Positions 2,346-26,385 are shown, counted from the stretch's first letter. The stretch: DNA of 26,385 nt from a virus (IMGVR_UViG_2909309443_000009); one strand, 5' to 3'. Notes: a model not told the origin generated them from the sequence alone. Made by a program: numbers and translations.

Positions 2346-2438
2346 GTCTTTAAGTGATAAGCATAAACCGCAGCACGATCTTGCATACGACGTGCTACGG
2401 TTTCATTTATCTCCGACTGGAAACTTCTTATACAAAGA

Positions 2439-2957
2439 CTATACGCCAACATCATAAATGATCGCCACCTTCTGGCGAGGAACTCCTGATGCAATTAATC
2501 GTCCGGCTTGTGCCCATTGTTCTGGTGTAAGTTTGGGACGACGTCCACCAATTCGTCCCTGTGCGCGAGCAGCTTCCAGTCCAGCTTTTGTTCGTTCAAC
2601 AATCAGTTCTCGTTCCATTTCAGCCAGGGCACCCATCACATGAAAGAAAAAACGCCCCATCGGCGTGCTGGTATCAATAGCATCCGTCAGGCTGCGAAAA
2701 TTAACGCCACGTTCGCGCAACTCCTCAACCAGAATGACCAGATGCCGCATACTACGCCCCAGCCGATCCAGCTTCCAGACAACCAGAGTGTCACCTGCCG
2801 ATAATGTCCTGAGCAGTTTTTTCAGTCCCAGCCTTTCGGACTTTGTACCGCTTATCTTGTCTTCAAAAATCAGCTCGCATCCTGCACAGTTCAGCGCATT
2901 ACGTTGTAGATCTGTGTTCTGGTCATTTGTTGACACACGTACATAGCCAATAAGCAT
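2439..2957 (-). CDS. pin: Pin/Gin/Hin-family serine DNA invertase, inverted second copy, C-terminally truncated (ends ...IIYDVGV)
   Basis: MLIGYVRVSTNDQ... resolvase/invertase catalytic domain; near-identical to 4835-5389 but lacks the last ~12 residues of the HTH; lies in a ~600-bp inverted repeat. Confidence 0.7.
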   Translation of the reverse strand: MLIGYVRVSTNDQNTDLQRNALNCAGCELIFEDKISGTKSERLGLKKLLRTLSAGDTLVVWKLDRLGRSMRHLVILVEELRERGVNFRSLTDAIDTSTPMGRFFFHVMGALAEMERELIVERTKAGLEAARAQGRIGGRRPKLTPEQWAQAGRLIASGVPRQKVAIIYDVGV

Positions 2958-2983
2958 GGTAGATCTCCCTGACAAAAGCAGGA

Positions 2984-3271
2984 ATGATGCCATTTGCTCG
3001 TTATTTCTGCATTTTCATAAATGTTGGTTTGGGAGAAGGTGCTCCAGCTATTGGCGTTCCGTTCTTCTGGCCGTCCGCTGCAATGCCAAATACTGTAATC
3101 GACAGCTGGTCCAGTATGGTGTTTTTGAAGTTCAACGGCGCGAAATTCTCTGCCACTGATTATCCTGTGCTGGCGAAAGTGTTTCCTTCGCTGGTATTAC
3201 CTGAAGCCCGCGGTGATTTCATTCGTATCTGGATGACGGGCGAGGTGCAGACGGTGGTCGCGAATTATTAA
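2984..3271 (+). CDS. Orphan tail-fibre C-terminal variable cassette (Sv-like) reading through the left crossover site
   Basis: ORF begins MMPFARYFCIFINVGLGEG across the crossover site, then a unique C-terminal cassette; no upstream constant tail-fibre region exists. Confidence 0.45.
   Translation: MMPFARYFCIFINVGLGEGAPAIGVPFFWPSAAMPNTVIDSWSSMVFLKFNGAKFSATDYPVLAKVFPSLVLPEARGDFIRIWMTGEVQTVVANY
3012..3037. repeat. pix/gix/hix-like 26-bp invertase crossover site (left)
   Basis: TTTTCATAAATGTTGGTTTGGGAGAA, reverse complement resembles hix/gix consensus TTnTCnAAACC..GGTTT..GAnAA; inverted partner at 4755-4780. Confidence 0.6.
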
Positions 3272-3479
3272 GCTGGCAGGCAGCTACAAACTTTTCTCAG
3301 TTTGCCGGGAATATAGGCGAAGGTGCGGGACACGCAATTAACTTTCATGATGGCATCGCCGGAAATCAGCCAGGATTTTCACGATTTAATTTCACCAGTA
3401 ACTCTGTGGGTGATGGTGTGAATTTTGTTGCTGTCAGACCGCGAAATATTGCATTTAACTTTCTGGTGAGGGCTAAATA

Positions 3480-4073
3480 ATGAAACCTGTTTTTGATGAA
3501 AATGGGCTGGCTACAGTGCCGGGCGATATGCGTTGTTTTTATTATGATGCTGAAACATCTGAGTATACGGGCTGGTCTGATGAATATATTAATACTGGCG
3601 TAAGTATGCCCGCCTGTTCCACTGGTATTGACCCTGGCGAAAACATTCCGGGAAGAGTGGCAGTATTTACAGGTAAGGGATGGCGCCATGAAGAAGACCA
3701 TCGCAATGAGACTGTTTACTTAATCGAAAATGGCGCAGCTGTTACAGTGGATTATATCGGTGCCATCAAAGACGGTTATGTCACGATTTCACCGTTAACG
3801 CCATACGATAAATGGGATGGTGAGAAATGGGTGACAGACACTGAGGCACAACACAGTGCCGCAGTAGACGCGGCAGAAGCACAGCGCCAGTCACTGATTG
3901 ATGCAGCAATGGCTTCCATTAGTCTGATTCAGCTGAAATTACAGGCCGGACGGAAACTGACTCAGGCAGAAACAACCCGACTTAACGCCGTGCTGGATTA
4001 CATTGACGCGGTGACGGCAACAGATACCAGCACCGCGCCGGATATCATCTGGCCTGAACTGCCGGAGGCGTAG
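3480..4073 (+). CDS. Tail fibre assembly protein (Tfa/U-like)
   Basis: 197-aa ORF with RBS GAGGG; Tfa-like N-terminus and C-terminal region; position directly after the tail-fibre cassette inside the invertible segment. Confidence 0.65.
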   Translation: MKPVFDENGLATVPGDMRCFYYDAETSEYTGWSDEYINTGVSMPACSTGIDPGENIPGRVAVFTGKGWRHEEDHRNETVYLIENGAAVTVDYIGAIKDGYVTISPLTPYDKWDGEKWVTDTEAQHSAAVDAAEAQRQSLIDAAMASISLIQLKLQAGRKLTQAETTRLNAVLDYIDAVTATDTSTAPDIIWPELPEA

Positions 4074-4259
4074 GCCATTCAATATCGGGTGCTGTTGACG
4101 TATCAACACGCATCAGCAGCACACGGTATTTCTTCCATTGGGTGAGAGTTGTAGCTTCTTCATCAGTTGCGATATCAGCATCAACAGCATCCTGACGCCA
4201 GGATATTTCACTGTCAGCTTTTTCCCGTAATTGGGATTTTTTAACTTCAGCAATAGCTA

Positions 4260-4472
4260 TTAATTCCTTTTGGTCGGCTGAGGAATATCTATCAGTGCTG
4301 GTTTTCCATTCAGTGTTCCAATCTGTTTTCCTGGTGGAATATCCATAAATAACTTCTTATGTTCTTCCTCACTGACTATTACACCATCATCAGGCCACAG
4401 ACCTGATGCCTCAAATTTTTCTTTCTCCGATATGGGGAAAAAGCCATTTGCTTTAGCGCTCCATACGTACAT
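4260..4472 (-). CDS. Tail fibre assembly protein, alternative copy, truncated (70 aa)
   Basis: Tfa-like N-terminus (MYVWSAKANGFFPI...) on the opposite strand, convergent with 3480-4073; premature stop suggests a decayed gene. Confidence 0.4.
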   Translation of the reverse strand: MYVWSAKANGFFPISEKEKFEASGLWPDDGVIVSEEEHKKLFMDIPPGKQIGTLNGKPALIDIPQPTKRN

Positions 4473-4487
4473 ATCAATACCCCACCG

Positions 4488-4808
4488 CTATAATGTCCAC
4501 ATTAAATCCCCGGGACCTGCCTGCCAGATGCTGGCCCCTGTTAATGATTTTGTTTGATGAACAACCGCCACATTTGCTGGCGATTGTGTTTCAGTTGTTA
4601 CAGTACCGATATCATTCCAGTTAATTGAGATGGAATAGTTCGTTGTTGTAAACGACCGGGGGAAAGTTATGTGTCTTACATTGGTGCCGACAGGAAATCC
4701 AAGATAAACACGCTGAATTATCATTCCTCCAGGTAACATAACCCAGTTAGCACCTTCTCCAAAACCAAGGTTTATGAAAATGCAGAAATAACGAGCAAAT
4801 GGCATCAT
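4488..4808 (-). CDS. Orphan alternative tail-fibre C-terminal cassette (Sv'-like) reading through the right crossover site
   Basis: Begins with the same MMPFARYFCIFIN junction peptide as 2984-3271, then a different C-terminal cassette. Confidence 0.45.
   Translation of the reverse strand: MMPFARYFCIFINLGFGEGANWVMLPGGMIIQRVYLGFPVGTNVRHITFPRSFTTTNYSISINWNDIGTVTTETQSPANVAVVHQTKSLTGASIWQAGPGDLMWTL
4755..4780. repeat. pix/gix/hix-like 26-bp invertase crossover site (right)
   Basis: TTCTCCAAAACCAAGGTTTATGAAAA; compare hixL TTCTTGAAAACCAAGGTTTTTGATAA; ~55 bp upstream of pin. Confidence 0.65.
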
Positions 4809-4834
4809 TCCTGCTTTTACCTGGGGGATCTACC

Positions 4835-5389
4835 ATGCTTATTGGCTATGTTCGCGTATCAACAAATGACCAGAACACCGATCTACAACGTAATGCGTTG
4901 AACTGTGTAGGATGTGAACTGATTTTTGAAGACAAGATAAGCGGTACGAAGTCCGAAAGACCGGGACTGAAAAAACTGCTCAGGACATTATCGGCAGGTG
5001 ACACTCTGGTGGTCTGGAAACTGGATCGGCTGGGGCGTAGTATGCGGCATCTGGTCATTCTGGTTGAGGAGTTGCGCGAACGTGGCGTTAATTTTCGCAG
5101 CCTGACGGATGCTATTGATACCAGCACACCGATGGGGCGTTTTTTCTTTCATGTGATGGGTGCCCTGGCTGAAATGGAACGAGAACTGATTGTTGAACGA
5201 ACAAAAGCTGGACTGGAAGCTGCTCGCGCACAGGGACGAATTGGGGGACGTCGTCCCAAACTTACACCAGAACAATGGGCGCAGGCCGGGCGATTAATTG
5301 CATCAGGCGTTCCTCGCCAGAAGGTGGCGATCATCTATGATGTTGGTATATCGACACTGTATAAGAAGTTTCCGGTCGGAGATAAATGA
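4835..5389 (+). CDS. pin: Pin/Gin/Hin-family serine DNA invertase (full length)
   Basis: 184 aa from MLIGYVRVSTNDQNTDLQRNAL...; complete C-terminal HTH (...VAIIYDVGISTLYKKFPVGDK); RBS GGGGGA upstream. Confidence 0.85.
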   Translation: MLIGYVRVSTNDQNTDLQRNALNCVGCELIFEDKISGTKSERPGLKKLLRTLSAGDTLVVWKLDRLGRSMRHLVILVEELRERGVNFRSLTDAIDTSTPMGRFFFHVMGALAEMERELIVERTKAGLEAARAQGRIGGRRPKLTPEQWAQAGRLIASGVPRQKVAIIYDVGISTLYKKFPVGDK

Positions 5390-5860
5390 AACCGTAGCAT
5401 GTCGTATGCAAGATTGTGCGCGGTTGGCTGGTGAACTTTCGATAGTGCGAGTATTGAATGATTTCCAGCCGTTATCGATTTTATGTATTTTTTGCATGAG
5501 AGGATTTCCATCACCTCCCACCGGCCATCTATGACTTTACGCCACTGTCCCTAGGACTACTATGTACTAGGAGCGGATGTTAAACTCAGACTCGTTTCAG
5601 CTACATTGCGTTTTGAATAATATTCCATCATAATAACTCTTTGAAAAATGTAACCTTTTCATTTATAACACTTATGACTTACTTATCTCATTGGGATATC
5701 GGAGGCGAATACTTAACTATGACAAGCCCGATTATTATGACGCTGGCGATATTATATAGATTGATATTAAAATGTAGGATTAGGTTCTTGCCAAGGTGTC
5801 AAGATTTACAGATAGGTTTAAAACCATATAAATATGTTTTACGGTGAGATGTAATAATTA

Positions 5861-5888
5861 TTGGAAAGCATAAACGCTTGGTAAAAAT
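5861..5888 (+). promoter_or_regulatory. Candidate sigma70 promoter for the large NTPase gene
   Basis: TTGGAA - 16 bp - TAAAAA about 25 bp upstream of the RBS GGGAGAAG; by-eye call only. Confidence 0.25.
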
Positions 5889-5911
5889 TTAATTGTTGGG
5901 AGAAGCTAATC

Positions 5912-8900
5912 ATGGAACCCATATCAATTACAGTGGCAACTTATGTAGCAACTAAACTTATTGATCAATTCATTTCTCAAGAAGGATATAGTTGGATTAA
6001 GAAAGCATTATTCCCCACAGAAAAATATGTGGATAGATTATATCAACTAATTGAAGAGACGGCAATTGAGTTTGAAGAAACATATCCAGTAGAAAGTGGA
6101 GCAATTCCATTTTATCATTCTAAACCATTGTTTGAGATGTTGAATGAGTACATCCTTTTTAAAGAGTTCCCTGACAAAGAGATGTTATTAGACAAGTTCA
6201 AAGAATATCCAAGCGTCACTCCCCCAACTCAACAACAACTCAGCCTTTTTTATGGGATGTTATCATTAAAAATCAATAATTGTTCGAAGTTAAAAAAGCT
6301 ACATATCGAAGAAACGTATAAAGAAAAAATATTCGATATTAATGAAGAGCTCATTCAAGTCAAACTTATTTTACGGTCTATAGATGAGAAACTAACTTTT
6401 CACTTAAGTGATGATTGGTTAAATGAAAAAAATAGTCAAGCAATAGCTGACTTGGGAGGTCGATACACACCCGAACTCAACGTAAAGCTAGAAATAGCAG
6501 AGATATTTGATGGCCTCGGTAGAACTAATGATTTTTCTAAAATATTTTATTCGCATATAGATAGCTTTCTGGTCGCTGGAAAGAAATTACATAGTTGCGA
6601 TGTAATTTCCTCAGAATTATTTGAAATAAACCAGTCCTTAAAAGAAATTTCTGATATATATCAGGAGATTAATTTTTCTAAATTAGATGAAATCCCTATA
6701 AATAAATTTAATAACTATGTTTCTAGCTGCCAGACAGCTATTGGCGGAGCGGTATCAATATTGTGGGAACTCCGAGAAAAGTCAGAGCAAGTAGGTGAAA
6801 CCAAGCATTACAGTGATAAGTATTCATCTACTCTGCGAATGCTTCGGGAATTTGACTATGCGTGCAATGAATTACGTATATTCATTAATTCAACAACAGT
6901 GAAGTTGGCTAACAACCCATTCTTACTTCTCGAAGGAAAAGCAGGAATTGGTAAGTCTCATTTACTGGCTGATGTGATTAAAAATCGAATTGCTTCTGGG
7001 TATCCTTCACTACTCATACTAGGGCAACAACTTACTTCAGATGAATCTCCATGGTCACAAATCTTCAAGAGATTACAGCTTAAAATCACTTCTCGTGAAT
7101 TCCTAGAAAAACTGAATTTATATGGCAAAAAAACAGGAAAAAGAGTCTTAGTTTTTATTGATGCTATTAATGAAGGTAATGGAAATAAATTCTGGAATGA
7201 CAATATTAACAGTTTTGTCGATGAAATCAGATGCTTTGAATGGCTTGGTCTGATAATGTCAGTCAGAACAACATATAGAAATGTAACAATTTCACATGAG
7301 AATGTTGTGCGAAATAATTTTGAAATTCATGAACATATTGGATTCCAGAACGTTGAGTTGGAAGCGGTTAGTCTATTTTATGATTATTACAATATTGAGA
7401 GGCCTTCATCTCCTAACCTTAATCCAGAGTTTAAAAATCCTCTATTTCTTAAGTTATTGTGTGAAGGCATTAAGAAAAATGGTTTAACCAAAGTGCCTGT
7501 TGGATTTAATGGGATTTCAAATATTTTTAACTTTTTAGTTGAAGGGGTAAATAAATCATTAGCATCGCCAAAAAAATATGCATTCGATCCCAGTTTTCCT
7601 CTTGTTAAAGATGCTCTCAATGAAATCATAAAATTCAAATTAGAGATTGGTCGTAATAGTATTTCACTTAAAGATGCTCACTCAGTGGTTCAATCTGTAG
7701 TTAATGATTATGTTGCTGATAAAACCTTCCTCAGCGCCTTGATTGACGAAGGATTATTGACTAAAGGCATAGTGAGAAATGATGATAATTCTACTGAGGA
7801 AGTAGTTTATGTGGCTTTTGAAAGGTTTGATGATCATTTAACTGTTAATTTTTTATTAAATGATGTTGAAAATATCGAAAGTGAATTTAAGCCTGATGGT
7901 CGTCTGAAAAAATATTTTCATGATGAATGTGATTTTTATATAAAATCGGGAATAGTAGAGGCGTTGTCTATTCAATTGCCAGAAAGGTATGAAAAAGAGC
8001 TTTATGAATTTCTGCCGGAGTTCAGCAATAATCTTAAATTACTAGAAGCCTTTATTGATAGCTTGATATGGCGCGATATTAAGGCTATTTATTTCGAAAA
8101 AATTAGACCTTTCATCAATGAACATGTTTTTAAATTTAAAGATAGTTTTGATCATTTCCTCGAGGCAGTGATCTCTATTTCAGGTTTAGTTGGCCATCCC
8201 TTTAATGCTAATTTCTTGCATGATTGGCTAAAAGATTATTCTTTGGCAAATCGAGATTCGTTTTGGACTACAGAACTTAAATATAAATATAGTGAAGACT
8301 CAGCATTTAGGCATCTAATCGATTGGGCATGGGCCAGAACAGATAAAAGCTTTGTTTCGGATGAGTCAATCGAGCTAGTTGCAACTAGTTTATGCTGGTT
8401 TTTAACTTCTAGTAACCGAGAACTTCGAGATTGCTCAACTAAGGCTTTAGTGAGTTTACTCGAGCCAAGAATTCCTGTATTGAGAAAAATAATTGATAAG
8501 TTTTATGGTGTAAATGATCCTTACGTTTGGGAAAGAATATTTGCAGTTGCATTAGGCTGTACATTGCGAACTGATAATATTAAAGAACTAAAATATTTAG
8601 CCGAAACTGTTTACCAAAAGGTATTTTGTTCTAAGTATGTGTATCCAAATATATTACTTAGAGATTATGCTAGAGAGATTATTGAATTTGCTAATCATCT
8701 TGGATTGGAACTTGAAAGCATTGAATTATCCAAGACTAGACCACCCTACAACAGCATTTGGCCTGACAAGATTCCTTCAAAAGAGGAACTAGAGTCCCTT
8801 TATGATAAAGAACCTTATCGGGAACTCTGGAGCTCTATTATGGAAGATGGTGACTTTTCACGATATACTATTGGAACAAATTATAATCATTCTGATTGGT

Positions 8901-10366
8901 CTGGTTGCAAGTTTAATGAAACCCCTGTTGACCGTAAGCAAGTTTTTAAAACTTTCAAATGTAAACTAACTGATCAACAAAAAGACTTGTATGATGCCAC
9001 AGATCCTTTCATTTATGATGATAAATGCGAAGGAATTAAATTTGGTCGTGTGGTCGGTAGAAAAGCACAGGAAGAAATAAAGGCGAGCAAGAAATTATTT
9101 AAGAATTCATTGTCATACGATCTGTTAAGTGAGTTTGAAAATGAAATAGAGCCATACCTGGATCATAATAATAATCTGCTGGAAACTGATAAACACTTTG
9201 ATCTTCGACTAGCTCAACAATTTATATTCAATCGTGTTATAGAGCTTGGTTGGGATCCGGAGAAGCATGGTAATTTTGACCAACAAATAGGAACTGGACG
9301 TGGACGTAGAGAGGCATTCCAAGAACGGATTGGTAAAAAATACCAATGGATTGCTTATTATGAATACATGGCAAGGCTAGCCGATAATTTTACTCGTTTT
9401 GAAGGTTATGGTGACGAACGAAAGGAAAATCCATACCAAGGGCCATGGGAGCCTTACGTAAGAGATATAGATCCCACTATCTTACTTAAAGAAACTGGAA
9501 CGAAAAAAATAAGCAATAAAGAAATGTGGTGGCTTAATGATGAAGTGTTTGATTGGACTTGCTCTAATGAAGACTGGGTTAAAAGTTCTACTACTATAAC
9601 TAATTCATATGCTTTTATTGAAGTTAAAGATGATAATGGTGATGAATGGATAGTATTAGAAAGTCATCCATCATGGAAAGAACCAAAAATTATTGGAAAC
9701 GATGATTGGGGGCACCCACGAAAAGAGGTTTGGTATCAGATCAGAAGTTATATCGTTAAAGTTGAAGAATTTGAAAATTTTAGATGTTGGGCAATAGCTC
9801 AAGACTTTATGGGCAGGTGGATGCCGGAATGTACTGATAGATACCAATTATTTAATAGGGAGTACTATTGGTCCGAAGCATTTAAGTCTTTTAAATCAGA
9901 TTATTATGGTGGATCTGACTGGACTTCGGTAACAGACCGGGAGTCTGGAGCTAAGATAGCTGATGTTAGTGTCACTTCGATTAATTATTTGTGGGAAGAG
10001 GAGTTCGACAAATCAAAAATAGAAACTTTGAATTTTTTGAAGCCTAGTAACTTAATCTTTGAAAAGATGGGATTAAAAAGTGGGGAAGTAGAGGGTAGCT
10101 TCAATGATGAAAATGGAACTATGGTTTGCTTTGCAGCTGAAGCTGTATATGCTTCAAAGCCGCATCTACTTGTTAAAAAAGAACCATTTTTAACAATGTT
10201 AAGGGACAATGGTTTTGAAATCGTTTGGACATTATTAGGTGAAAAGGGCGTTATAGGGGGCTCACTCATATCAAGTCATCATTATGGTCGACAGGAGTTT
10301 AGTGGAGCATTTTATTATGAAGACAGTCAGCTAACAGGAAGTCATAAAACTAGCTTTACGAGATAA
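5912..10366 (+). CDS. Large (1484 aa) STAND/NACHT-like P-loop NTPase with uncharacterised N- and C-terminal modules; candidate antiphage defence protein
   Basis: Uninterrupted ORF with strong RBS; Walker A GKAGIGKS (nt 6935-6958), Walker B VLVFIDAINE (~7145-7177), sensor-1-like LIMSVRT; AT-rich; sits between pin and an att core. Confidence 0.8.
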   Translation: MEPISITVATYVATKLIDQFISQEGYSWIKKALFPTEKYVDRLYQLIEETAIEFEETYPVESGAIPFYHSKPLFEMLNEYILFKEFPDKEMLLDKFKEYPSVTPPTQQQLSLFYGMLSLKINNCSKLKKLHIEETYKEKIFDINEELIQVKLILRSIDEKLTFHLSDDWLNEKNSQAIADLGGRYTPELNVKLEIAEIFDGLGRTNDFSKIFYSHIDSFLVAGKKLHSCDVISSELFEINQSLKEISDIYQEINFSKLDEIPINKFNNYVSSCQTAIGGAVSILWELREKSEQVGETKHYSDKYSSTLRMLREFDYACNELRIFINSTTVKLANNPFLLLEGKAGIGKSHLLADVIKNRIASGYPSLLILGQQLTSDESPWSQIFKRLQLKITSREFLEKLNLYGKKTGKRVLVFIDAINEGNGNKFWNDNINSFVDEIRCFEWLGLIMSVRTTYRNVTISHENVVRNNFEIHEHIGFQNVELEAVSLFYDYYNIERPSSPNLNPEFKNPLFLKLLCEGIKKNGLTKVPVGFNGISNIFNFLVEGVNKSLASPKKYAFDPSFPLVKDALNEIIKFKLEIGRNSISLKDAHSVVQSVVNDYVADKTFLSALIDEGLLTKGIVRNDDNSTEEVVYVAFERFDDHLTVNFLLNDVENIESEFKPDGRLKKYFHDECDFYIKSGIVEALSIQLPERYEKELYEFLPEFSNNLKLLEAFIDSLIWRDIKAIYFEKIRPFINEHVFKFKDSFDHFLEAVISISGLVGHPFNANFLHDWLKDYSLANRDSFWTTELKYKYSEDSAFRHLIDWAWARTDKSFVSDESIELVATSLCWFLTSSNRELRDCSTKALVSLLEPRIPVLRKIIDKFYGVNDPYVWERIFAVALGCTLRTDNIKELKYLAETVYQKVFCSKYVYPNILLRDYAREIIEFANHLGLELESIELSKTRPPYNSIWPDKIPSKEELESLYDKEPYRELWSSIMEDGDFSRYTIGTNYNHSDWSGCKFNETPVDRKQVFKTFKCKLTDQQKDLYDATDPFIYDDKCEGIKFGRVVGRKAQEEIKASKKLFKNSLSYDLLSEFENEIEPYLDHNNNLLETDKHFDLRLAQQFIFNRVIELGWDPEKHGNFDQQIGTGRGRREAFQERIGKKYQWIAYYEYMARLADNFTRFEGYGDERKENPYQGPWEPYVRDIDPTILLKETGTKKISNKEMWWLNDEVFDWTCSNEDWVKSSTTITNSYAFIEVKDDNGDEWIVLESHPSWKEPKIIGNDDWGHPRKEVWYQIRSYIVKVEEFENFRCWAIAQDFMGRWMPECTDRYQLFNREYYWSEAFKSFKSDYYGGSDWTSVTDRESGAKIADVSVTSINYLWEEEFDKSKIETLNFLKPSNLIFEKMGLKSGEVEGSFNDENGTMVCFAAEAVYASKPHLLVKKEPFLTMLRDNGFEIVWTLLGEKGVIGGSLISSHHYGRQEFSGAFYYEDSQLTGSHKTSFTR

Positions 10367-10749
10367 AAATGAATCTCAGAGCTGAATATATAAGTAGTAT
10401 TAGAAACCGGGTTATACTTAAGAAATCAATCTTAAGTGTGGCAGTCGAATGGTAGCTAATATGCTAGCGGCGCTAATGCCTGTTTGTTGCTCATAACAGG
10501 CATTCACTTTAGTTATGGCAGAAAAGTATACATGCTGGGTTGGGAAAGTGTGAAAGAAAGGAAGATTGCTGCGCCGTTTGTCGTCACGTTTATCTTCATT
10601 GGCTATGCAAGTCGTAATAAAAGGTGGGACAAAACTGAGACACATAAAGCCTCGCAATGGCTTGCAAGGCTTTACATGTTTTGATGTGGTGGGACGTGTG
10701 AGCGCAGTGTTGATGGGGTAATGCTTTGAATTAGAAGCGGATTCTTATA

Positions 10750-10795
10750 ATTCGTAATGCGAAGGTCGTAGGTTCGACTCCTATTATCGGCACCA
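10750..10795 (+). other. 3' 46-nt fragment of tRNA-Thr (thrW-like, anticodon CGU): att core, not an intact tRNA
   Basis: ATTCGTAATGCGAAGGTCGTAGGTTCGACTCCTATTATCGGCACCA; upstream sequence is not tRNA-like. Confidence 0.75.
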
Positions 10796-10809
10796 TTTAA
10801 ATCAATAAG

Positions 10810-11587
10810 TTACCTCACATTTAAGTAAACTACGTTCTCCTCTTGTGCCGTATTTGTGCCATTGCGACTTATAATCGCATCGATTTTGCTCGCGTGCTCG
10901 GTGAGATGCCCGGCTGAAAGGTGGGCGTATCTTTGAACCATTTCGAGAGTTTCCCATCCTCCCATCTCTTTAAGTGCAAGAAGAGAGACACCGGACTGAA
11001 CCAGCCAGCTTGCCCAGGTATGCCTCAGATCATGGAAGCGGAAGTTGCTAATGCCTGCCCGCTTTAACGCTCCCTTCCATGCCTTGTTGCTGTCGGTTCT
11101 CATTTTCCTTACCGCTGCTGTTTTTGTTCCGTCGCTTCGGTAGGCAGGTTTGGTGTGGACAAATACCCATCTCTTATGGAGCCCCTGCTGTTTTCTTAAT
11201 ATCTGGCATGCGGTTTCGTTAAGAGGAACTCCAATCGCATTGCCAGCTTTTGTTTCATCAGGGTGCATCCATGCCATTTTCTTATCCAGATCGACCTGTG
11301 ACCACTCAAGGTCTGTAACGTTGGAACGGCGAAGGCCTGTCGTGATTGCAAACATGACCACAGGGAAGAAGTGAGGAGCAATTTCTGCAAACAGGCGCTT
11401 CGATTCCTCCTCTGTAAGCCATCTGATTCGTCCATTCTTAACGCGTGGTGTTGATATTTTGGGCGCCCTGTCAAGCCATCCCCATTCAACAGCCATATTG
11501 AGAATAGCGCGAAGTATTGCCAGATGCCGCGTCTTCGTTCCTTTGCTTGCCAGCTTTGGTTTATACTCCGGCACTGGCTTGCCAAGC
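10810..11587 (-). pseudogene. int: Tyrosine integrase, C-terminal ~255 codons, separated from its upstream part by IS66 insertion
   Basis: Catalytic motifs [13 protein letters not shown] and RYAHL present; aligns to residues ~130-387 of the intact integrase at 22883-24046; reading frame continues through the target duplication into the IS. Confidence 0.75.
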
Positions 11588-11617
11588 GTAAGCGACTCGT
11601 CAGAACCGTATTGATAT

Positions 11618-13189
11618 TTACTGAGAGCTCAGATCAACTTTCCAGGGCAACAGATCGCGTACCCGGTTTGCCGGCCAGTCCTGGATATGTTCAATGACGT
11701 AACGCAGCCACTTTTCTGACTCCACATTGTTCAGACGGCATGTGCCGATCAGCGAGTACAACACCGCCGCATGTTCACCACCGCTGTCGGAACCCGCGAA
11801 CATCCAGTTTTTCCGGCCTACGGCCACTCCCCGTAAGGCGTTCTCTGCGATGTTGTTGTCGATTTCCACCCAGCCATTACTGCAGTACACGTTCAGTGCA
11901 TCCCACTGTTTCAGCAGGTATGCGAACGCTTTTGCCGTATCTGAGTGACGCGACAGTGTTTTCATCTGTTGCTGTATCCAGTCATACAGTGACTGCATCA
12001 GTGGCGCGGCTCTGGCTTTTCTTGCCGCCAGACGCTGTTCTGCTGAACAGCCCCGGACCTCTGCCTCGATGGCATACAGTTCACCGATACGCTGCAGGGC
12101 TTCCGTGGTGATGTAGGTGGGCGCTCTTGCATGCACATCGTGGATTTTTCTCCGGACATGAGCCATACACGCGGCTTCCGTTATTCTGCCGGATTCGTAT
12201 AACGCCCGGTAACCACCGTAAGCATCGGCCTGAAGCACACCGCTGTAACCGGCCAGGTGATTTTGTGGATGGATACCTTTCCGGTCCGGACTGTACGCGA
12301 ACCAGACCGCCGGGGGCATCTGTGAACCGGCGTTACGGTCATCACGGACGTAGACCCACAGCCGGGCTGTCCGGGTTTTACCGCTGCCCGGCTCCTGGAC
12401 CGGGACGGGGATATCATCAGCATGGACTTTACCGGGCATCAGCACATACTGGCGCAGGACGTCATACAGCGGCTCCAGCAGTTCAGCAACAGCACCTGTC
12501 CAGCGCCCCAGTGTGGCACGGCTCAGCTCCACGCCCTGACGACGGTATATTTCTGACTGGCGGTATAACGGCAGATGGTCTGCATATTTCCCGGTGACAA
12601 CATGGGCCAGAAGCCCCGCTCCGGCATAACTGCGTGCAATGGGTTTTGAAGGTACTGGTGCCTGCACGATATGGTCGCACCGGCAACAGGCCTGTTTCGG
12701 ACGTTGTGTTTCGATAACCTTAAAGGCGCTGCTGATAAGCTCCAGTTGCTCTGACACATCACATCCCAGAGAACTGAGTTCACCACCACAGGCAGGACAG
12801 CATTCCTCTTCCGGCCGGATAACCCGGGTTTCACGGGGAAGTGAGGCCGGTAACGGTTTACGGGCTGAAGACTGGCGCAGGGGGGATGGCAGTACCGGGT
12901 CATATTGCTCACCCAGCGTTTCTGCCATTTCTTCCTGAAGTGCGCTGATTCGCTCCTGTGCTTCCTGTATCTGCCGTTCGGTTTTTGCGCGAAGTTTTTC
13001 TGAGCTTTTACCGAACTGCATACGTTGCAGTTTCGCAACCAGCGCCTTCAGCCGGTTGATTTCGGAAGCATAAGCCGCCACCCGCTGTGAGAGCAGGCGG
13101 TTGTATTCAGCCATCTGGCGTATGGTGTCCTGTTGCGTCTGCAACAGTGCCCGCAGGCGGGCGTTCTCATGAGCAAGTGAGGTGTCCAT
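11618..13189 (-). CDS. tnpC: IS66-family transposase TnpC
   Basis: 523-aa ORF with N-terminal coiled-coil/leucine-zipper-like region and Cys-rich segment typical of IS66 TnpC. Confidence 0.8.
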
Positions 13190-13208
13190 ATCCTCACTTT
13201 ACAACGGG

Positions 13209-13556
13209 TTATATGCGGATTCCAGCGCGTTCCGTTCGTTTCGGGTGCTTCCAGTTGATACCTTCAAGAAGCATGGATAACTGAGCCGGAGTAAGGTGCA
13301 CCTTGCCGTCACGGGTGACTGGCCAGACGAAGCGGCCCCGCTCCAGGCGTTTGGTGAAGAGGCACAGTCCGTCACTGTCAGCCCACAACACTTTTATCTG
13401 GTCACCCCGGCGTCCGCGGAAGATGAACAGGTGTCCGGAGAACGGGTCATCCTTCAGGACGTTCTGAACTTTTGATGCCAGGCCGTTAAAGCCATTTCGC
13501 ATATCGGTGATACCTGCAACCAGCCAGATACGCGAACCTGCAGGGAGAGATATCAT
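13209..13556 (-). CDS. tnpB: IS66-family accessory protein TnpB (Orf2)
   Basis: 115-aa ORF MISLPAGSRIWLVAGITDMRNGFNGL... immediately upstream of tnpC. Confidence 0.75.
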   Translation of the reverse strand: MISLPAGSRIWLVAGITDMRNGFNGLASKVQNVLKDDPFSGHLFIFRGRRGDQIKVLWADSDGLCLFTKRLERGRFVWPVTRDGKVHLTPAQLSMLLEGINWKHPKRTERAGIRI

Positions 13557-13680
13557 CAGTGGCTGCTCCCTTTTATTTCGCGGATAAGTGTCTGTAATAA
13601 CGCCGGCGTCAGTTTACCTTTAAGCCTGAGAGTTCCGGCCGGCAGAACCAGCTCACAACACAGACTGTCGGACGGTGTAT

Positions 13681-14232
13681 TTATCTGCTCTGGTTCCTGT
13701 GCGGGGCCGGGATTTTATTATCCGGCTCCGGCGTTAACGTCACGGGAAGCAGTGCCGGCATATTTTTTCCGGAAGGCAGCAGGCCACCTTTCCGGTATTG
13801 ATGGCGCCAGTTGAAGAGCAGGTTATCGTTGATTCCGTTTTCCCGGGCGATCTGCGCCACACAGGCTCCGGGCTGCAGTGACTGCTCCACTAAGGCGATT
13901 TTAAACTCATAAGGGAAGTTGGGCCGCCGGGGACGTTTTTTTACCACGGGGGCTTCGGATATAACGGTGCTTTCAGGACGTACGACTGGTATCGTGGAAA
14001 ATTGTCCGTAAAGGCAGGCATCAAGTTCCTGCTCCGACATGCCTGCGGGCAAAGGCCACGAAAGGCCAGCTCTCCGAAAGCGCACGAACATACTACAAAC
14101 TGTTGATTTTGGTACACCCAGGCGACGCCCGGCCACAACCCGGGGTAAATGTTCTTCAAAGTGAAGACGTAAAGCTTCAGTGATCCAGGTCCGGTGTTTC
14201 ATACGATAGTGTCCATTAAAAATGATGGACAT
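13681..14232 (-). CDS. tnpA: IS66-family accessory protein TnpA (Orf1), HTH-containing; N-terminal extent uncertain
   Basis: C-terminal part RPRRPNFPYEFKIALVEQSLQPGACVAQIARENGINDNLLFNWRHQYR is a transposase-type HTH; 124-bp gap before tnpB is atypical. Confidence 0.55.
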   Translation of the reverse strand: MSIIFNGHYRMKHRTWITEALRLHFEEHLPRVVAGRRLGVPKSTVCSMFVRFRRAGLSWPLPAGMSEQELDACLYGQFSTIPVVRPESTVISEAPVVKKRPRRPNFPYEFKIALVEQSLQPGACVAQIARENGINDNLLFNWRHQYRKGGLLPSGKNMPALLPVTLTPEPDNKIPAPHRNQSR

Positions 14233-14353
14233 TATTTTTGTAGAGCCGGAGGAAACAGACCAGACGGTTTAAATGAGCCGGTTACTGCCAAGCCGCAAAC
14301 ACCTGTCCCGGCTCATTTCCCAGTTCAGGCGATGGCGGCGGTTTTCCATCCCG

Positions 14354-22351: not shown

Positions 22352-22656
22352 TGACCACTTTTACCGACAAAGAACTGATTAAAGAAATTAAAGAGCGTAT
22401 CAGCAGCCTTGACGTGCGAGACGATATTGAGCGCCGTGCTTATGAAATCGCACTCCTATCTCTGGAAGTAGAACCAGATGAACGCGAAGCTTATGAATTA
22501 TTCATGGAAAAGCGTTTCGGTGACTTAGTAGATCGTCGGAGAGCAAAAAACGGCGATAACGAATACATGGAATGGGATATGACTCTCGGTTGGATCGTCT
22601 GGCAGCAACGAGCTGGTATCCATTTTTCAACAATGTCACAGCAAGAGGTGAAATAA
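22351..22656 (+). CDS. Hypothetical prophage protein (YfdT-like)
   Basis: 101-aa ORF; stop overlaps the xis start (TAATG). Confidence 0.45.
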   Translation: MTTFTDKELIKEIKERISSLDVRDDIERRAYEIALLSLEVEPDEREAYELFMEKRFGDLVDRRRAKNGDNEYMEWDMTLGWIVWQQRAGIHFSTMSQQEVK

Positions 22657-23006
22657 TGGAGCCATACAGCCTCACACTCGATGAGGCCTGTCATTTTCTC
22701 AAGATATCCAGACCGACTGCCATTAACTGGATACGCACAGGGCGTCTTCAGGCAACACGCAAAGATCCCACTAAGAATAAATCTCCTTACCTCACAACAC
22801 GACAAGCCTGCATTGCGGCTCTTCAGTCTCCGCTGCATACTGTCCAGGTGAGCGCGGGTGATGGCATAACAGAGGAAAGAAAATGTCACTCTTCCGCAGA
22901 GGTGAAATATGGTACGCCAGTTTCACATTGCCGAACGGTAAAAGATTTAAACAGTCTCTTGGAACAAAGGACAAAAGGCAGGCGACAGAACTCCATGACA
23001 AGCTAA
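22656..23006 (+). CDS. xis: Excisionase (AlpA/Xis-type HTH); 3' extent uncertain
   Basis: [36 protein letters not shown] typical of excisionases; RBS GAGGTG; in-frame ORF runs to 23006, overlapping the int start at 22883. Confidence 0.5.
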
Positions 23007-24046
23007 AGGCTGAAGCATGGCGGGTCAGCAAACTTGGTGAAATACCTGATATAACGTTCGAGGAAGCGTGTGTCAGGTGGCTTGAAGAGAAAGCACATAA
23101 AAAATCACTGGACGATGACAAAAGCCGGATCGGATTCTGGCTTCAACATTTCGCAGGAATGCAACTAAGAGACATTACTGAATCAAAAATTTATTCAGCA
23201 ATGCAGAAAATGACGAACCGGCGTCATGAGGAAAACTGGAAACTCAGGGCAGAAGCATGCAGAAAAAAAGGGAAACCTGTTCCAGAATACACGCCAAAAC
23301 CAGCGTCCGTTGCAACGAAGGCTACGCATCTTTCATTTATAAAGGCCCTACTAAGAGCCGCAGAGCGTGAATGGAAAATGCTGGATAAGGCACCAATTAT
23401 TAAAGTGCCTCAACCAAAGAATAAACGGATCCGCTGGCTGGAGCCCCATGAAGCACAAAGGCTGATTGATGAATGTCCGGAGCCATTAAAGTCTGTTGTT
23501 GAATTTGCACTGGCAACAGGCTTAAGACGCTCGAACATCATCAACCTTGAATGGCAACAAATAGATATGCAGCGCCGGGTGGCATGGATAAACCCGGAAG
23601 AGAGTAAATCAAACCGCGCAATCGGCGTTGCGCTGAATGATACTGCATGTCGCGTTTTGAAAAAACAAATCGGGAATCATCACCGTTGGGTATTTGTGTA
23701 CAAGGAAAGCTGTACCAAACCAGACGGAACGAAAGCGCCAACAGTAAGGAAGATGCGGTATGACGCAAACACAGCCTGGAAAGCAGCGCTGAGACGGGCT
23801 GGTATTGATGATTTCAGATTTCACGACTTGAGACACACCTGGGCAAGTTGGCTGGTTCAAGCCGGAGTCCCGTTGTCAGTGTTACAGGAAATGGGAGGCT
23901 GGGAGTCTATCGAAATGGTTCGTCGATATGCTCACCTTGCACCTAATCACCTTACCGAACACGCACGGCAAATAGACTCGATCCTGAACCCATCGGTCCC
24001 AAATTCGTCCCAGTCAAAAAATAAGGAAGGTACTAATGATGTGTAA
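22883..24046 (+). CDS. int: Lambdoid tyrosine integrase (intact)
   Basis: 387 aa; RBS AGGAAAG; catalytic R...HxxR...Y motifs ([24 protein letters not shown]); ends 14 bp before the att core. Confidence 0.9.
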
Positions 24047-24060
24047 CTTATTGATTTAAA

Positions 24061-24109
24061 TGGTGCCGATAATAGGAGTCGAACCTACGACCTTCGCATT
24101 ACGAATGCG
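24061..24109 (-). other. 3' 49-nt fragment of tRNA-Thr (thrW-like) in inverted orientation: second att core
   Basis: TGGTGCCGATAATAGGAGTCGAACCTACGACCTTCGCATTACGAATGCG; the 14-bp spacer to the integrase stop (CTTATTGATTTAAA) is identical to the spacer at 10796-10809. Confidence 0.75.
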
Positions 24110-24197
24110 TAAATTGATCTTGTAAAATCAATACCTATCGAATTTAAATGGATTTTTTGCCACAATATTGCCACAGTTCGTTAGGAATCAGACAGAA

Positions 24198-25271
24198 ATG
24201 GCGACTATACGCAAACGTGGTAACTACCAATGGGAAGCTCAAATCCGTAAACGTGGTTTTCCCTCTCAAACCAAAACCTTTAACACCAAAGTAGAAGCAG
24301 AAGCTTGGGCCAAAATGATCGAGTCAGAAATGGCGAGAGGAGTTTGGCTTAGCCGCAGCGAAGCGGAATCTACGACATTGTATGAAGCCCTAACGCGATA
24401 TGAAAAAGAGATTGTTCCCGACAAAAAAGGGGCAGTGCAAGACCGATCATTGGTGCGGATACTAAAAGGCACTCAGCTGGCGAAAAACTATATGGCCAGC
24501 ATCAGGAGTGCCGATGTCGCCAAGCTGAGAGATGAATGGTTGAAAATCTATGCTCCTGCAACCGTTTTAAGGCGTTTGGCCTTACTTTCTCATGTATTCA
24601 ATGTTTCGCGGAAAGAATGGGGCATGGAGAGCCTGCTGAACCCCGTAGAGGCCATTCGTAAACCCCAACCCAAGAACTCCAGGACCAGACGCCTAGAAGC
24701 GCTGCCTGTAGTTTCTGAGAAAACCGGTGTTACGTCAGGAAAGCAAATAGCCAACGAGATCGAACATATCATCGCCGCAACACATTCATTAGTATTGCCA
24801 GCAATCATTCTTCTGGCGTTAGAGACAGCCATGCGCCGTAGCGAAATCGCAGAGCTTCGATGGCGCTTTATCGATCTTGATCGGCGAGTTGCACATCTGC
24901 CGGATACTAAGAATGGTAATGCCCGCGATGTCCCTTTATCAACGAAAGCCATTACGATACTGTCCAGTCTCAAGGAACATTCTAAGCCAGCTGCTGATAA
25001 GGTTTTTGATATGCGTGCAGACGCGATTACCCGAGCTTTTGACCGAGCTGTAAAACGAGCCAGAGAACGATACGAGAAAACAAACTCATTATGTGATGAA
25101 TCTTTCCTTAAAGATTTAAGATTTCATGACCTTCGACATGAAGCAACTTCTCGACTTGCTGAAATTTTCCCTATGCATGAACTAACCAAAATTACAGGAC
25201 ATAAAGATCCAAGAATGCTAATGCGGTATTATCATCCAAAAGCTGAAGATTTGGCGTTAAAGTTGAAATAA
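24198..25271 (+). CDS. Tyrosine site-specific recombinase / island integrase (second family)
   Basis: MATIRKRGNYQWEAQIRKRGF N-terminus typical of island integrases; catalytic LRFHDLRHEATSRL and MRYYH; ATG 24198 with RBS AGGA. Confidence 0.8.
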   Translation: MATIRKRGNYQWEAQIRKRGFPSQTKTFNTKVEAEAWAKMIESEMARGVWLSRSEAESTTLYEALTRYEKEIVPDKKGAVQDRSLVRILKGTQLAKNYMASIRSADVAKLRDEWLKIYAPATVLRRLALLSHVFNVSRKEWGMESLLNPVEAIRKPQPKNSRTRRLEALPVVSEKTGVTSGKQIANEIEHIIAATHSLVLPAIILLALETAMRRSEIAELRWRFIDLDRRVAHLPDTKNGNARDVPLSTKAITILSSLKEHSKPAADKVFDMRADAITRAFDRAVKRARERYEKTNSLCDESFLKDLRFHDLRHEATSRLAEIFPMHELTKITGHKDPRMLMRYYHPKAEDLALKLK

Positions 25272-25280
25272 GGACGTTGT

Positions 25281-26171
25281 ATGGATTATAAAAATAAGTT
25301 AGTTGATGCATCACCAAAATTAAACAACCCTCAACTATTGGCTATAATATACTTAATACCTTTTGGATACTTGATTGTAGAAAACCCATTATGGCTAGAA
25401 AATATATACATTGCCGCTCCAATTTTCCTATCATCTATAGCTTTATTAACCAGTGTATACATAGGATATCGTGATTTATTAAATAAAGTATTTAATAATG
25501 CAGTAGTTAAATGGGGCGTAACTGGCTTTACATATTCCGTATGCTTATGGATCGCAAAGTTTAAGCTTGACATAGCTTATGGTATAGTCCCAGAAAACCT
25601 TAATTACTCGACATTAGCTTATGCTTTCATGCTCTCATTTCCAATAGGGGCAATGATTTGTGCAATTACAGTCTATATATACATATTTTTGCGAGATGTA
25701 TCCCCAGCAAAAATAGTAATATCCTCTATGATTTCAGTATATATTGGAAGCTTGGCTCAACATCATATACAGATGAACAATCTTCCTGAAAAAATAATAT
25801 TAATAGGACTTATAATTATGGTCCCCTATAACATGGTCAATTTAGCTAGTTCATTAGTTATTAAAAGGAAATTTAATTTTAATCGTTTAGTATCAGGCTT
25901 ATCCCTTTTTGCTGTGTCAGTTGCTCTTTTTATTATTAGCATGACAGCAATGAAATACATTGAAAGATTTCAAGAAAAGTTTATTTTTCTCGATGCAAGA
26001 ACATCTACGACATGTGGTAGCTCAGAAAGCAAATCTCTTTATATTGAAAAAAATGAAAATCAGTGTTATAAAATATCAGGAAATAAATTCTCGGAGTTAA
26101 GACTAACTCTTGTAGATAAAAACATCTTGAATATAAATAATAAAGGCACTTCAACTTATGAACAAAAATAA
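25281..26171 (+). CDS. AT-rich polytopic membrane protein (about 7 predicted TM helices), unknown function
   Basis: 296 aa with multiple ~20-residue hydrophobic stretches; strongly AT-rich; immediately downstream of the integrase. Confidence 0.5.
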   Translation: MDYKNKLVDASPKLNNPQLLAIIYLIPFGYLIVENPLWLENIYIAAPIFLSSIALLTSVYIGYRDLLNKVFNNAVVKWGVTGFTYSVCLWIAKFKLDIAYGIVPENLNYSTLAYAFMLSFPIGAMICAITVYIYIFLRDVSPAKIVISSMISVYIGSLAQHHIQMNNLPEKIILIGLIIMVPYNMVNLASSLVIKRKFNFNRLVSGLSLFAVSVALFIISMTAMKYIERFQEKFIFLDARTSTTCGSSESKSLYIEKNENQCYKISGNKFSELRLTLVDKNILNINNKGTSTYEQK

Positions 26172-26385
26172 CCCTGCTAATTCATTTTCTATAGAAGCAA
26201 GGAAAGAAGCTTTTCGGAGAGCTGAAGCCAGTCTTTTTTTATCAAGTAAAGATCCCAAAGGCTCCTCATTTTTTAATGAAATAAAAACTAAGGTAATCAA
26301 TGGAGAGCTAACCTATGAAGAGGCAAAGAGAGAAGTATTAAATTATCACATTGAACAATCTAAAAATCAAAATAAAAGAGGCTAA
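26158..26385 (+). CDS. Small helical protein resembling VbhA-type antitoxins of Fic-family toxins (tentative)
   Basis: 75 aa; EARKEAFRRAEASLFLS ... INGELTYEEAKREVL pattern; overlaps the upstream gene end; stop codon is the last triplet of the window. Confidence 0.3.
   Translation: MNKNNPANSFSIEARKEAFRRAEASLFLSSKDPKGSSFFNEIKTKVINGELTYEEAKREVLNYHIEQSKNQNKRG

Follow-up and report, generated by a model that had tools for sequence, protein, structure and literature searches.

The viral DNA stretch IMGVR_UViG_2909309443_000009 (26,385 nt; the whole of it is referred to below as the window) carries a Pin/P-segment switch, that is, an invertible tail-fibre segment (P) bounded by two crossover sites (pix) and accompanied by a DNA invertase gene (pin), with a pin gene at both of its ends. 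Comparison with related prophages shows an e14-type switch that has, in place of the constant tail-fibre side, the pin-proximal side of a second, related prophage's switch. The module is probably a fusion of two prophage ends via their P/pix regions, with a switch that still flips but has no output. Its components, its mechanism and the family to which it belongs are all known; the architecture and its documented natural history are new, and they involve no new mechanism.

Two inverted pin genes flank the P segment

A repeat search of the window returned one inverted repeat pair, with 671-nt arms at 2373-3043 and 4749-5419 that are 95% complementary and have 1705 nt between them. When the arms were compared by blastn, in agreement with a pairwise alignment, they were 94.5% identical, with 36 mismatches. 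The left arm holds one pin gene (pin-left, or pinX), its leader and the left pix site, and the right arm holds the right pix site, the pin leader and the second pin gene (pin-right, or pinY). An earlier reading of the DNA from its sequence alone (the sequence-only reading) had proposed two inverted pin genes flanking an invertible tail-fibre cassette, within near-identical inverted arms of about 600 bp that each contain a crossover site and a pin gene. Self-alignment bore this out, with a 95% match over arms slightly longer than claimed. The mirrored antisense open reading frames (ORFs) that it had pointed to, at 2458-2643 and 5149-5334, are also present; they encode 61 amino acids each, are mutually identical, and are incidental frames inside pin.

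A second pin copy could in principle come from a chimeric or mis-joined contig across the invertible region. Invertible regions often break or confuse assemblies, many of the Pin loci of draft genomes are located at contig ends, and three 1-bp homopolymer deletions of the window are all confined to the P segment. However, 18 complete genomes, assembled independently and originating from several laboratories, have the pin-P-pin module at one and the same chromosomal site and share the 36 arm differences, an amber codon in pin-left and the flanks. Because the arms differ at 36 positions (5% divergence) they are not a collapsed repeat either, and an assembly artefact is extremely unlikely.

A domain search found an ORF with Resolvase and HTH_7 matches in both arms (E 2.9e-50 and 1.5e-51), and the true start in both copies is the methionine of MLIGYVRV. 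Pin-right (4835-5389, + strand) is an intact DNA invertase of 184 amino acids, with Resolvase (E 1.5e-51) and HTH_7 (E 5.6e-13) domains and the active-site serine in YVRVST (MLIGYVRVST). It is identical to K-12 PinE at 175 of 184 positions (95%) and matches Gin of phage Mu (3UJ3) over its full length (E 3.5e-93, 313 bits), whereas the match to gamma-delta resolvase reaches only 110 bits. Pin-left (2439-2957, - strand) has 172 codons before an amber TAG at codon 173, which is TCG (Ser173) in pin-right, and homology runs on to the natural stop at 2403. The sequence-only reading had called this copy C-terminally truncated; it is an otherwise full-length gene with a point nonsense mutation (TCG to TAG). 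Pin-right therefore has all the features of a small serine recombinase and pin-left only part of them, as the amber codon removes the last part of the helix-turn-helix domain. Pin-left also carries Pro43Leu and, judging from these changes, is probably inactive; it is annotated as a 519-bp pinE (WP_000904963.1) in all of the related loci that were fetched.

Invertases that depend on Fis and an enhancer conserve basic residues in helix B and a Gln/Arg/Leu set in helix 1 of the DNA-binding domain (McLean et al., PMC3798978). Both pin copies have Lys46, Lys47 and Arg50 together with the Gln/Arg/Leu residues of DNA-binding-domain helix 1 (in ...QAGRL...), when aligned to Hin numbering by eye.

The pix sites are 26-bp imperfect palindromes in inverted orientation that share a TT core. 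The left site (3012-3037, + strand) is TTTTCATAAATG-TT-GGTTTGGGAGAA, with the core at 3024-3025; the right site (4755-4780, - strand), read on the minus strand, is TTTTCATAAACC-TT-GGTTTTGGAGAA, with the core at 4767-4768. They differ at outer positions 11-12 (TG vs CC) and at inner position 19 (G vs T). The core and inner half of the left site are identical to the inverted repeat of the e14 P segment, TTGGTTTGGGAGAAGG (PMC12529663), and both K-12 e14 sites match in the inner half. The invertible segment runs from core to core (3026-4766, about 1.74 kb).

The constant tail-fibre part is absent

The canonical order, found in the relatives L003, L004, L005 and L007 and in K-12 e14, is late genes-YmfQ-Stf (constant part)-pix-P-pix-pin-cargo, with a single pin opposite the late genes, YmfQ and Stf. 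In the window the invertase gene is present in two copies, one per end, and no constant tail-fibre 5' part lies outside either site. The real constant-side site has the outer half CTCTCGAAAACC and a frame, ...ALENLGLGEG, that continues into the segment (L003, L004 and K-12). Both this half-site and this frame are absent from the window, in which both outer halves are of the pin-side type.

The sequence-only reading had identified nine codons, MMPFARYFC, as a remnant of the constant region. They are the antisense of the pin leader: MMPFACYFFIFINVGLGEG, the MMPFARYFC-type start, is also the beginning of the pin-proximal stfE pseudogene in K-12 e14, and the DNA of this start also adjoins pin in L003 and L004. 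Because both outer sides are pin-type and MMPFARYFC is pin leader antisense, nothing of the constant part remains, and both cassettes occupy the 'stfE slot'. The same reading was right that the constant tail-fibre 5' region is gone, and that fusion to a tail-fibre N-terminus is impossible for either cassette.

The two arms belong to different prophage ends

Beyond the repeat, the arms continue into unrelated cargo. The left flank carries PD-T4-3, an anti-phage gene encoding a GIY-YIG nuclease (1572-2345, + strand; PADLOC E 2.7e-140, profile positions 1-255 of 256), which is followed by an AraC-family gene. The right flank carries Avs2 (AVAST type 2 STAND NTPase; 5912-10366, + strand; 1755 bits, profile positions 58-1497 of 1504). 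Both defence roles are assigned by profile match. Each cargo follows pin in canonical prophages of its own type. X-type prophages (L003 and L004) have the order late genes-YmfQ-Stf-P-pin-PD-T4-3(-AraC) and are intact myoviruses. Y-type prophages have the order Stf-P-pin-Avs2-attR; L007 (WS0115A) is intact at the same pao/yagP' site, and L005 is a 44.8-kb circle in which int-attP-Avs2-pin is contiguous. L005 matches the window over the Y pin end (4757-10639) and over the Y int end (22644-24086), which are inverted relative to one another.

The orientation of the attachment (att) cores is informative in this respect. Core (a) adjoins yagP'/LysR', just left of the window. Core (b), at 10750-10813, is a 3' fragment of thrW (tRNA-Thr) between the Avs2 arm and a truncated integrase gene, and core (c), at 24043-24106, adjoins the Y-type integrase gene (22883-24046). 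Cores (a) and (c) share one orientation, and (b) is inverted relative to both. Insertion by an integrase cannot turn a core around, and the inverted core therefore requires a rearrangement that has one end at P/pix. The truncated integrase gene (int'; 10810-11587, - strand) lacks its N-terminus and is fused to rusA', which lacks its C-terminus, by an old deletion, with IS66 inserted later at the junction; this polarity is the one predicted by a fusion of two prophages.

ARAGORN found no complete tRNA in the window, the att cores being partial thrW copies. We take them to be thrW on the basis of the tRNA sequence and of the tRNA-Thr annotated at that site in E1433 and E1535, in which an intact tRNA-Thr gene (thrW) and proA lie at core (c), after the right-hand integrase. 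Cores (b) and (c) form a perfect 64-bp inverted repeat, each consisting of the thrW 3' fragment and an integrase gene end.

We infer the following route of origin. Two e14/SfV-like myovirus prophages that both use thrW, X (with pin-PD-T4-3-AraC at attR) and Y (with pin-Avs2), would have recombined within their P/pix regions in opposite relative configuration. In one route (T), a tandem thrW::Y::X would have undergone an inversion between pixR of Y and pixL of X, mediated either by Pin or by homologous recombination of P segments that were in opposite states. In the other (C), a circular X genome would have recombined into the P segment of a resident Y in inverted register. Either route would yield pin-P-pin and a reciprocal Stf-P-Stf junction, and the later rusA'::int' deletion would have removed that junction together with both late-gene sets. 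Both routes fit every orientation and both truncation polarities.

The sequence-only reading had explained the structure as a palindromic duplication, that is, a fold-back in which the pin side of one switch was copied in inverted form and the copies then diverged. The layout beyond pin is indeed mirror-like (arm-core ... cargo-pin, P, pin-cargo ... arm-core), and the two pin genes differ at only 4 positions in their central 250 bp. However, a fold-back would continue with the same sequence beyond the repeat, whereas the cargo is wholly different (PD-T4-3, the AraC-family gene and IS3' on one side, Avs2 on the other), and each cargo-pin combination stands alone in canonical prophages. The 3' 170 bp of the right arm are within 1-2 differences of Y-type pins, and the left arm is 12-19 differences from all sampled pins. 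The arms are thus 5% diverged alleles, each contiguous with a different prophage end, and a true fold-back duplication is highly improbable.

Two further candidates were rejected. Assigning each arm to a parental phage from its pin sequence failed, as the pins are mosaic and only the right-arm 3' end is diagnostic. IS66 was considered as the cause of the rusA'::int' deletion, but the same junction exists in FDAARGOS_1077, where the IS66 site is empty, and the IS66 of the window has a clean 8-bp duplication. The element (tnpA-tnpB-tnpC, about 11588-14285) is flanked by the target duplication GCTTGGCA at 11580-11587 and 14286-14293, and is a simple insertion into a pre-existing rusA'::integrase' deletion junction.

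FDAARGOS_1077 also has a nested inversion. Comparison of its locus (L092, 9032-20500) with L001 (17400-28868) shows that a block of about 11.5 kb between cores (a) and (b), IS3'-AraC-PD-T4-3-pin-P-pin-Avs2, is inverted. Two att-core repeats of about 240 bp bound the inversion. The exchange falls within 76 bp of identical sequence that contain the thrW-derived core, and either integrase or homologous recombination could have mediated it.

The segment is found in both orientations

The module was found in 18 of 5,426 complete E. coli genomes, which form one group of near-identical loci and which, from strain names such as TW10598, B2C, E925 and 2014EL-1346-6, we take to be enterotoxigenic E. coli (ETEC) of O6:H16 type. 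Six have the segment oriented as in the window, 11 have it flipped, and one (E1620) carries an IS100 insertion. Comparative genomics thus upholds the suggestion that the segment still inverts.

In the loci L002, L089 and L091 the segment is in the opposite orientation and the arms are unchanged. By blastn, each arm of L002 is 99.9% identical to the arm on the same flank, and only the interior is reversed. Within its pix sites the outer variants (ATG/ACC) stay with the flanks, and the inner variants (GGTTTG/GGTTTT) move with the segment. Because the polymorphisms partition in this way, the exchange can be narrowed, within the 671 bp of homology, to an interval of 6-8 bp at the TT core. Partition at the core is the signature of serine-invertase strand exchange.

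The 671-bp arms, at 95% identity, would also be a workable substrate for RecA-mediated recombination, and the separate, larger inversion in FDAARGOS_1077 used a repeat of about 240 bp. A crossover inside the arms would leave them chimeric, however, and in L002 the 99.9% match of each arm to its own flank extends all the way to the pix core; in L089 and L091, too, each flank retains its own pin protein allele. A random crossover would be expected to fall in the 6-8-bp interval about 1% of the time. It is therefore very improbable that the orientation differences arose by RecA recombination between the arms rather than by Pin at pix.

Orientation disagrees with the single-nucleotide polymorphisms (SNPs) of the flanks, and flipping is therefore recurrent. 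Over 20 kb of flank, E8 (window orientation) differs by 1 SNP from E1535 (flipped), by 2 from E54 (flipped) and by 8 from E1433 (window orientation), and each orientation is found both in genomes that have a 13-kb island at thrW and in genomes that lack it. At least two independent flips are needed, and there were probably more. As K-12 cultures hold both e14 orientations simultaneously (PMC4272514), each assembly may report the majority state only.

Intact pin-right, or another Pin-family invertase acting in trans, would bind both 26-bp pix sites. Fis, at an enhancer placed by homology inside the pin 5' ends, would assist the inversion, and strand exchange at the central TT would flip the 1.74-kb segment.

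The two orientations encode almost the same products

The P segment consists of two convergent pairs of tip and assembly genes, one Collar/StfE-like with Caudo_TAP and the other gp53-like with tfa'. In the first pair, the tip gene Sv (2984-3480, + strand) opens with the stfE-type start MMPFARYFCIFINVGLGEGA... and has a weak Collar match. Its product is 165 amino acids long in relatives and 44% identical to K-12 StfE, and the gene is frameshifted in the window by a 1-bp deletion at 3230. It is followed by the intact assembly gene tfa (3480-4073, + strand; 197 amino acids; Caudo_TAP E 1.4e-27), the product of which is 64.5% identical to K-12 TfaE. In the second pair, tfa' (4045-4472, - strand; 142 amino acids in relatives) is frameshifted by a 1-bp deletion at 4267. 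The tip gene Sv' (4474-4808, - strand), which has a Gp53-like_C domain and the same stfE-type start, is frameshifted at 4507. All three deletions are in homopolymers when compared with seven related loci, and only the one at 4507 is shared, with strain E8; apart from them, the window and E8 differ by 1 mismatch and 3 gaps in 25.4 kb. Rather than being real decay, they may have been introduced during polishing with reads of mixed orientation.

All four segment genes read inward, and flipping therefore cannot redirect transcription into the flanks. With a nearly identical pin leader on either outer side, the two states differ only by Val/Leu at residue 14 of the stfE-type ORFs. A sigma-70 scan identified no promoter reading into the cassettes, with no excess of sites over shuffled sequence. 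The most economical reading of this arrangement is that the switch would be a live but functionless relic between two defence genes.

Alternatively, the module could have been kept as a working part of a defence island, in which the short stfE-type tips block receptors or the flip modulates the neighbouring defence genes. StfE2, the pin-proximal chimeric ORF of K-12 e14, reportedly inhibits T2 adsorption (Kirigo et al. 2025, PMC12529663), and both cassettes of the window permanently have the stfE-type start. The module also sits between PD-T4-3 and Avs2, and its P genes are intact in the related genomes examined, except for the one frameshift shared with E8. The flanks of the carriers, however, have diverged so little (a few SNPs per 20 kb) that intact ORFs are no sign of selection, and the cassettes are unlike K-12 StfE/StfP (44% identity or unrelated). 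Nor is a retained function readily reconciled with inward-facing genes, nearly identical products in the two states and the lack of a promoter-like site into either cassette, and it is considered very unlikely.

It is similarly unlikely that pin-P-pin is a domesticated part of a compact island made up of PD-T4-3, pin-P-pin and Avs2. If it were, the second pin leader would fix both tips in the stfE-type context, and both would occlude phage receptors. This would be an always-on version of the K-12 e14 StfE2 adsorption block, to which the nested inversion of FDAARGOS_1077 would add a further layer of rearrangement.

Several observations weigh against a fusion of two prophages that left a flipping switch with no output. 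With regard to its origin, FDAARGOS_1077 has the arrangement predicted by route C, without IS66, and the other 17 genomes fit route T. A search through the Avs2-core-int' junction, with no dedicated Stf-P-Stf query, found no tandem Y::X lysogen or Stf-P-Stf locus; the full junction occurs only in the same lineage. The pin alleles are mosaic, and the left arm is not closest to the sampled X-type pins. With regard to the flipping, inversion is deduced from assemblies of different isolates and not within one culture. The recombinational enhancer of such switches, with two Fis sites, lies in the 5' end of the invertase gene. A strict Fis-consensus scan returned one 15-mer and not two, at +71 in each pin copy and in K-12 pinE, and a looser G...C 15-mer at +22 of pin lies about 49 bp upstream of it. 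The near-identity to K-12 pinE and the one strict match point to a candidate enhancer in the pin 5' region. With regard to the output, its apparent absence rests on architecture, as no promoter was detected for the stfE-type ORFs or upstream of pin, where sigma-70 sites were no more numerous than in shuffled sequence.

Known relatives

Work on the e14 P segment and pinE reportedly includes that of Mehta et al. in 2004. The segment and its invertase are also covered by Goldberg et al. 2014 (PMC4272514) and Kirigo et al. 2025 (PMC12529663), and the segment by Plasterk & van de Putte 1985, as cited in PMC4272514. The window resembles K-12 e14 in its invertase, in the core and inner half-site (TT-GGTTTGGGAGAA), in the pin-side leader and in the stfE-type ORF start. 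In both, the segment holds two convergent pairs of Stf tip and Tfa genes (about 1.8 kb in e14), and a defence slot, occupied by mcrA in K-12, follows pin. In K-12 e14, however, pin is single and the constant stfP 5' part lies behind pixL (outer half CTCTCGAAAACC); the window has the second pin arm in that place. Its cassette alleles also differ, one being 44% identical to StfE and the other having a different, gp53-like tip.

The Gin/G system of Mu, like Cin/C of P1 and Hin/H of Salmonella, is Fis/enhancer-dependent, a dependence that is putative for the window. The window shares with Gin/G the full-length invertase homology, 26-bp sites with a 2-bp core, an invertase gene outside the segment and beside one site, and the Fis-contact residues; it differs otherwise as it does from e14. 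Min of p15B and the R64 shufflon also have complex invertase and site layouts, with a constant N-terminal gene part and extra sites that enlarge the repertoire.

The apparent parental types are intact e14/SfV-like thrW prophages: pCE-O153H30-A and WS0115A for pin-Avs2, and Z1323HEC0067 and Z1323HEC0423 for pin-PD-T4-3. Their P segments are 96-97% identical to that of the window, their cargo and att arms are the same, and WS0115A and Z1323HEC0423 share its chromosomal neighbourhood. In them the single-pin switch is complete and is accompanied by late genes and a constant Stf part, whereas the window keeps only the two pin-cargo ends.

A cross-species scan covered 79 Pin loci of other species, 51 of them with at least 3 kb of upstream sequence. 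Two full pin genes were present in one of the 79, locus L020 of Trabulsiella odontotermitis (NZ_JNGH01000101.1, 774-6555), and L037 and L085 had fragments only. The two genes of L020 are divergent and 4.65 kb apart; unlike the window, the locus has gpI-like and tail-fibre 5' genes in the interval, along with several large inverted repeats, much as in a multi-site Min/Cin system. L020 is in a draft assembly with Ns and may be mis-joined. No record of the phage collection holds the double-pin module, the best coverage being 52%.

Implications

If the proposed origin is correct, the module is a natural, datable case of two prophages recombining via their invertible tail-fibre switches, and recombination at P/pix regions scrambles neighbouring prophages and leads to their decay. 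A symmetric switch that keeps flipping while changing almost nothing would mean that Pin-type inversion can persist without selectable output. With one intact and one amber pin acting on the same sites, and no phenotype to confound measurement of the inversion rate, the locus offers a natural test bed. It is also a ready orientation marker and a likely local source of assembly errors in this E. coli group.

In this phage family, the slot between pin and attR holds anti-phage cargo: PD-T4-3 (with the AraC-family gene), Avs2, or mcrA (K-12 e14, L008 6347-7180). Pin is the last conserved gene before this slot, which could alone explain orphan Pin-type recombinases beside defence genes.

Other features of the locus and its relatives

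The right end of the window (24107-26385), with an integrase gene at 24168-25271 and the sequence downstream of it, is the start of the island of about 13 kb between the Y-type integrase and thrW. The window, 2014EL-1346-6, E8 and E54 have the island, whereas E1433 and E1535 lack it. An odd 112-nt 'tRNA-Ser' is annotated by NCBI at the island junction in two assemblies.

L005 (NZ_CP172337.1, 44,831 bp) is annotated as a plasmid, pCE-O153H30-A, although it is a complete circular e14/SfV-like phage genome with the layout int-attP-Avs2-pin-P-Stf-late genes and a lambda-like early region. It carries iss and emrE, and is probably an excised or circularly assembled prophage. In strain I4 (L006, 1-14140), the Avs2-side pin is interrupted by a multiresistance region with IS26 at its boundaries (qnrB19, tet(A), floR), and the pin gene itself can therefore be a landing site for a resistance transposon.

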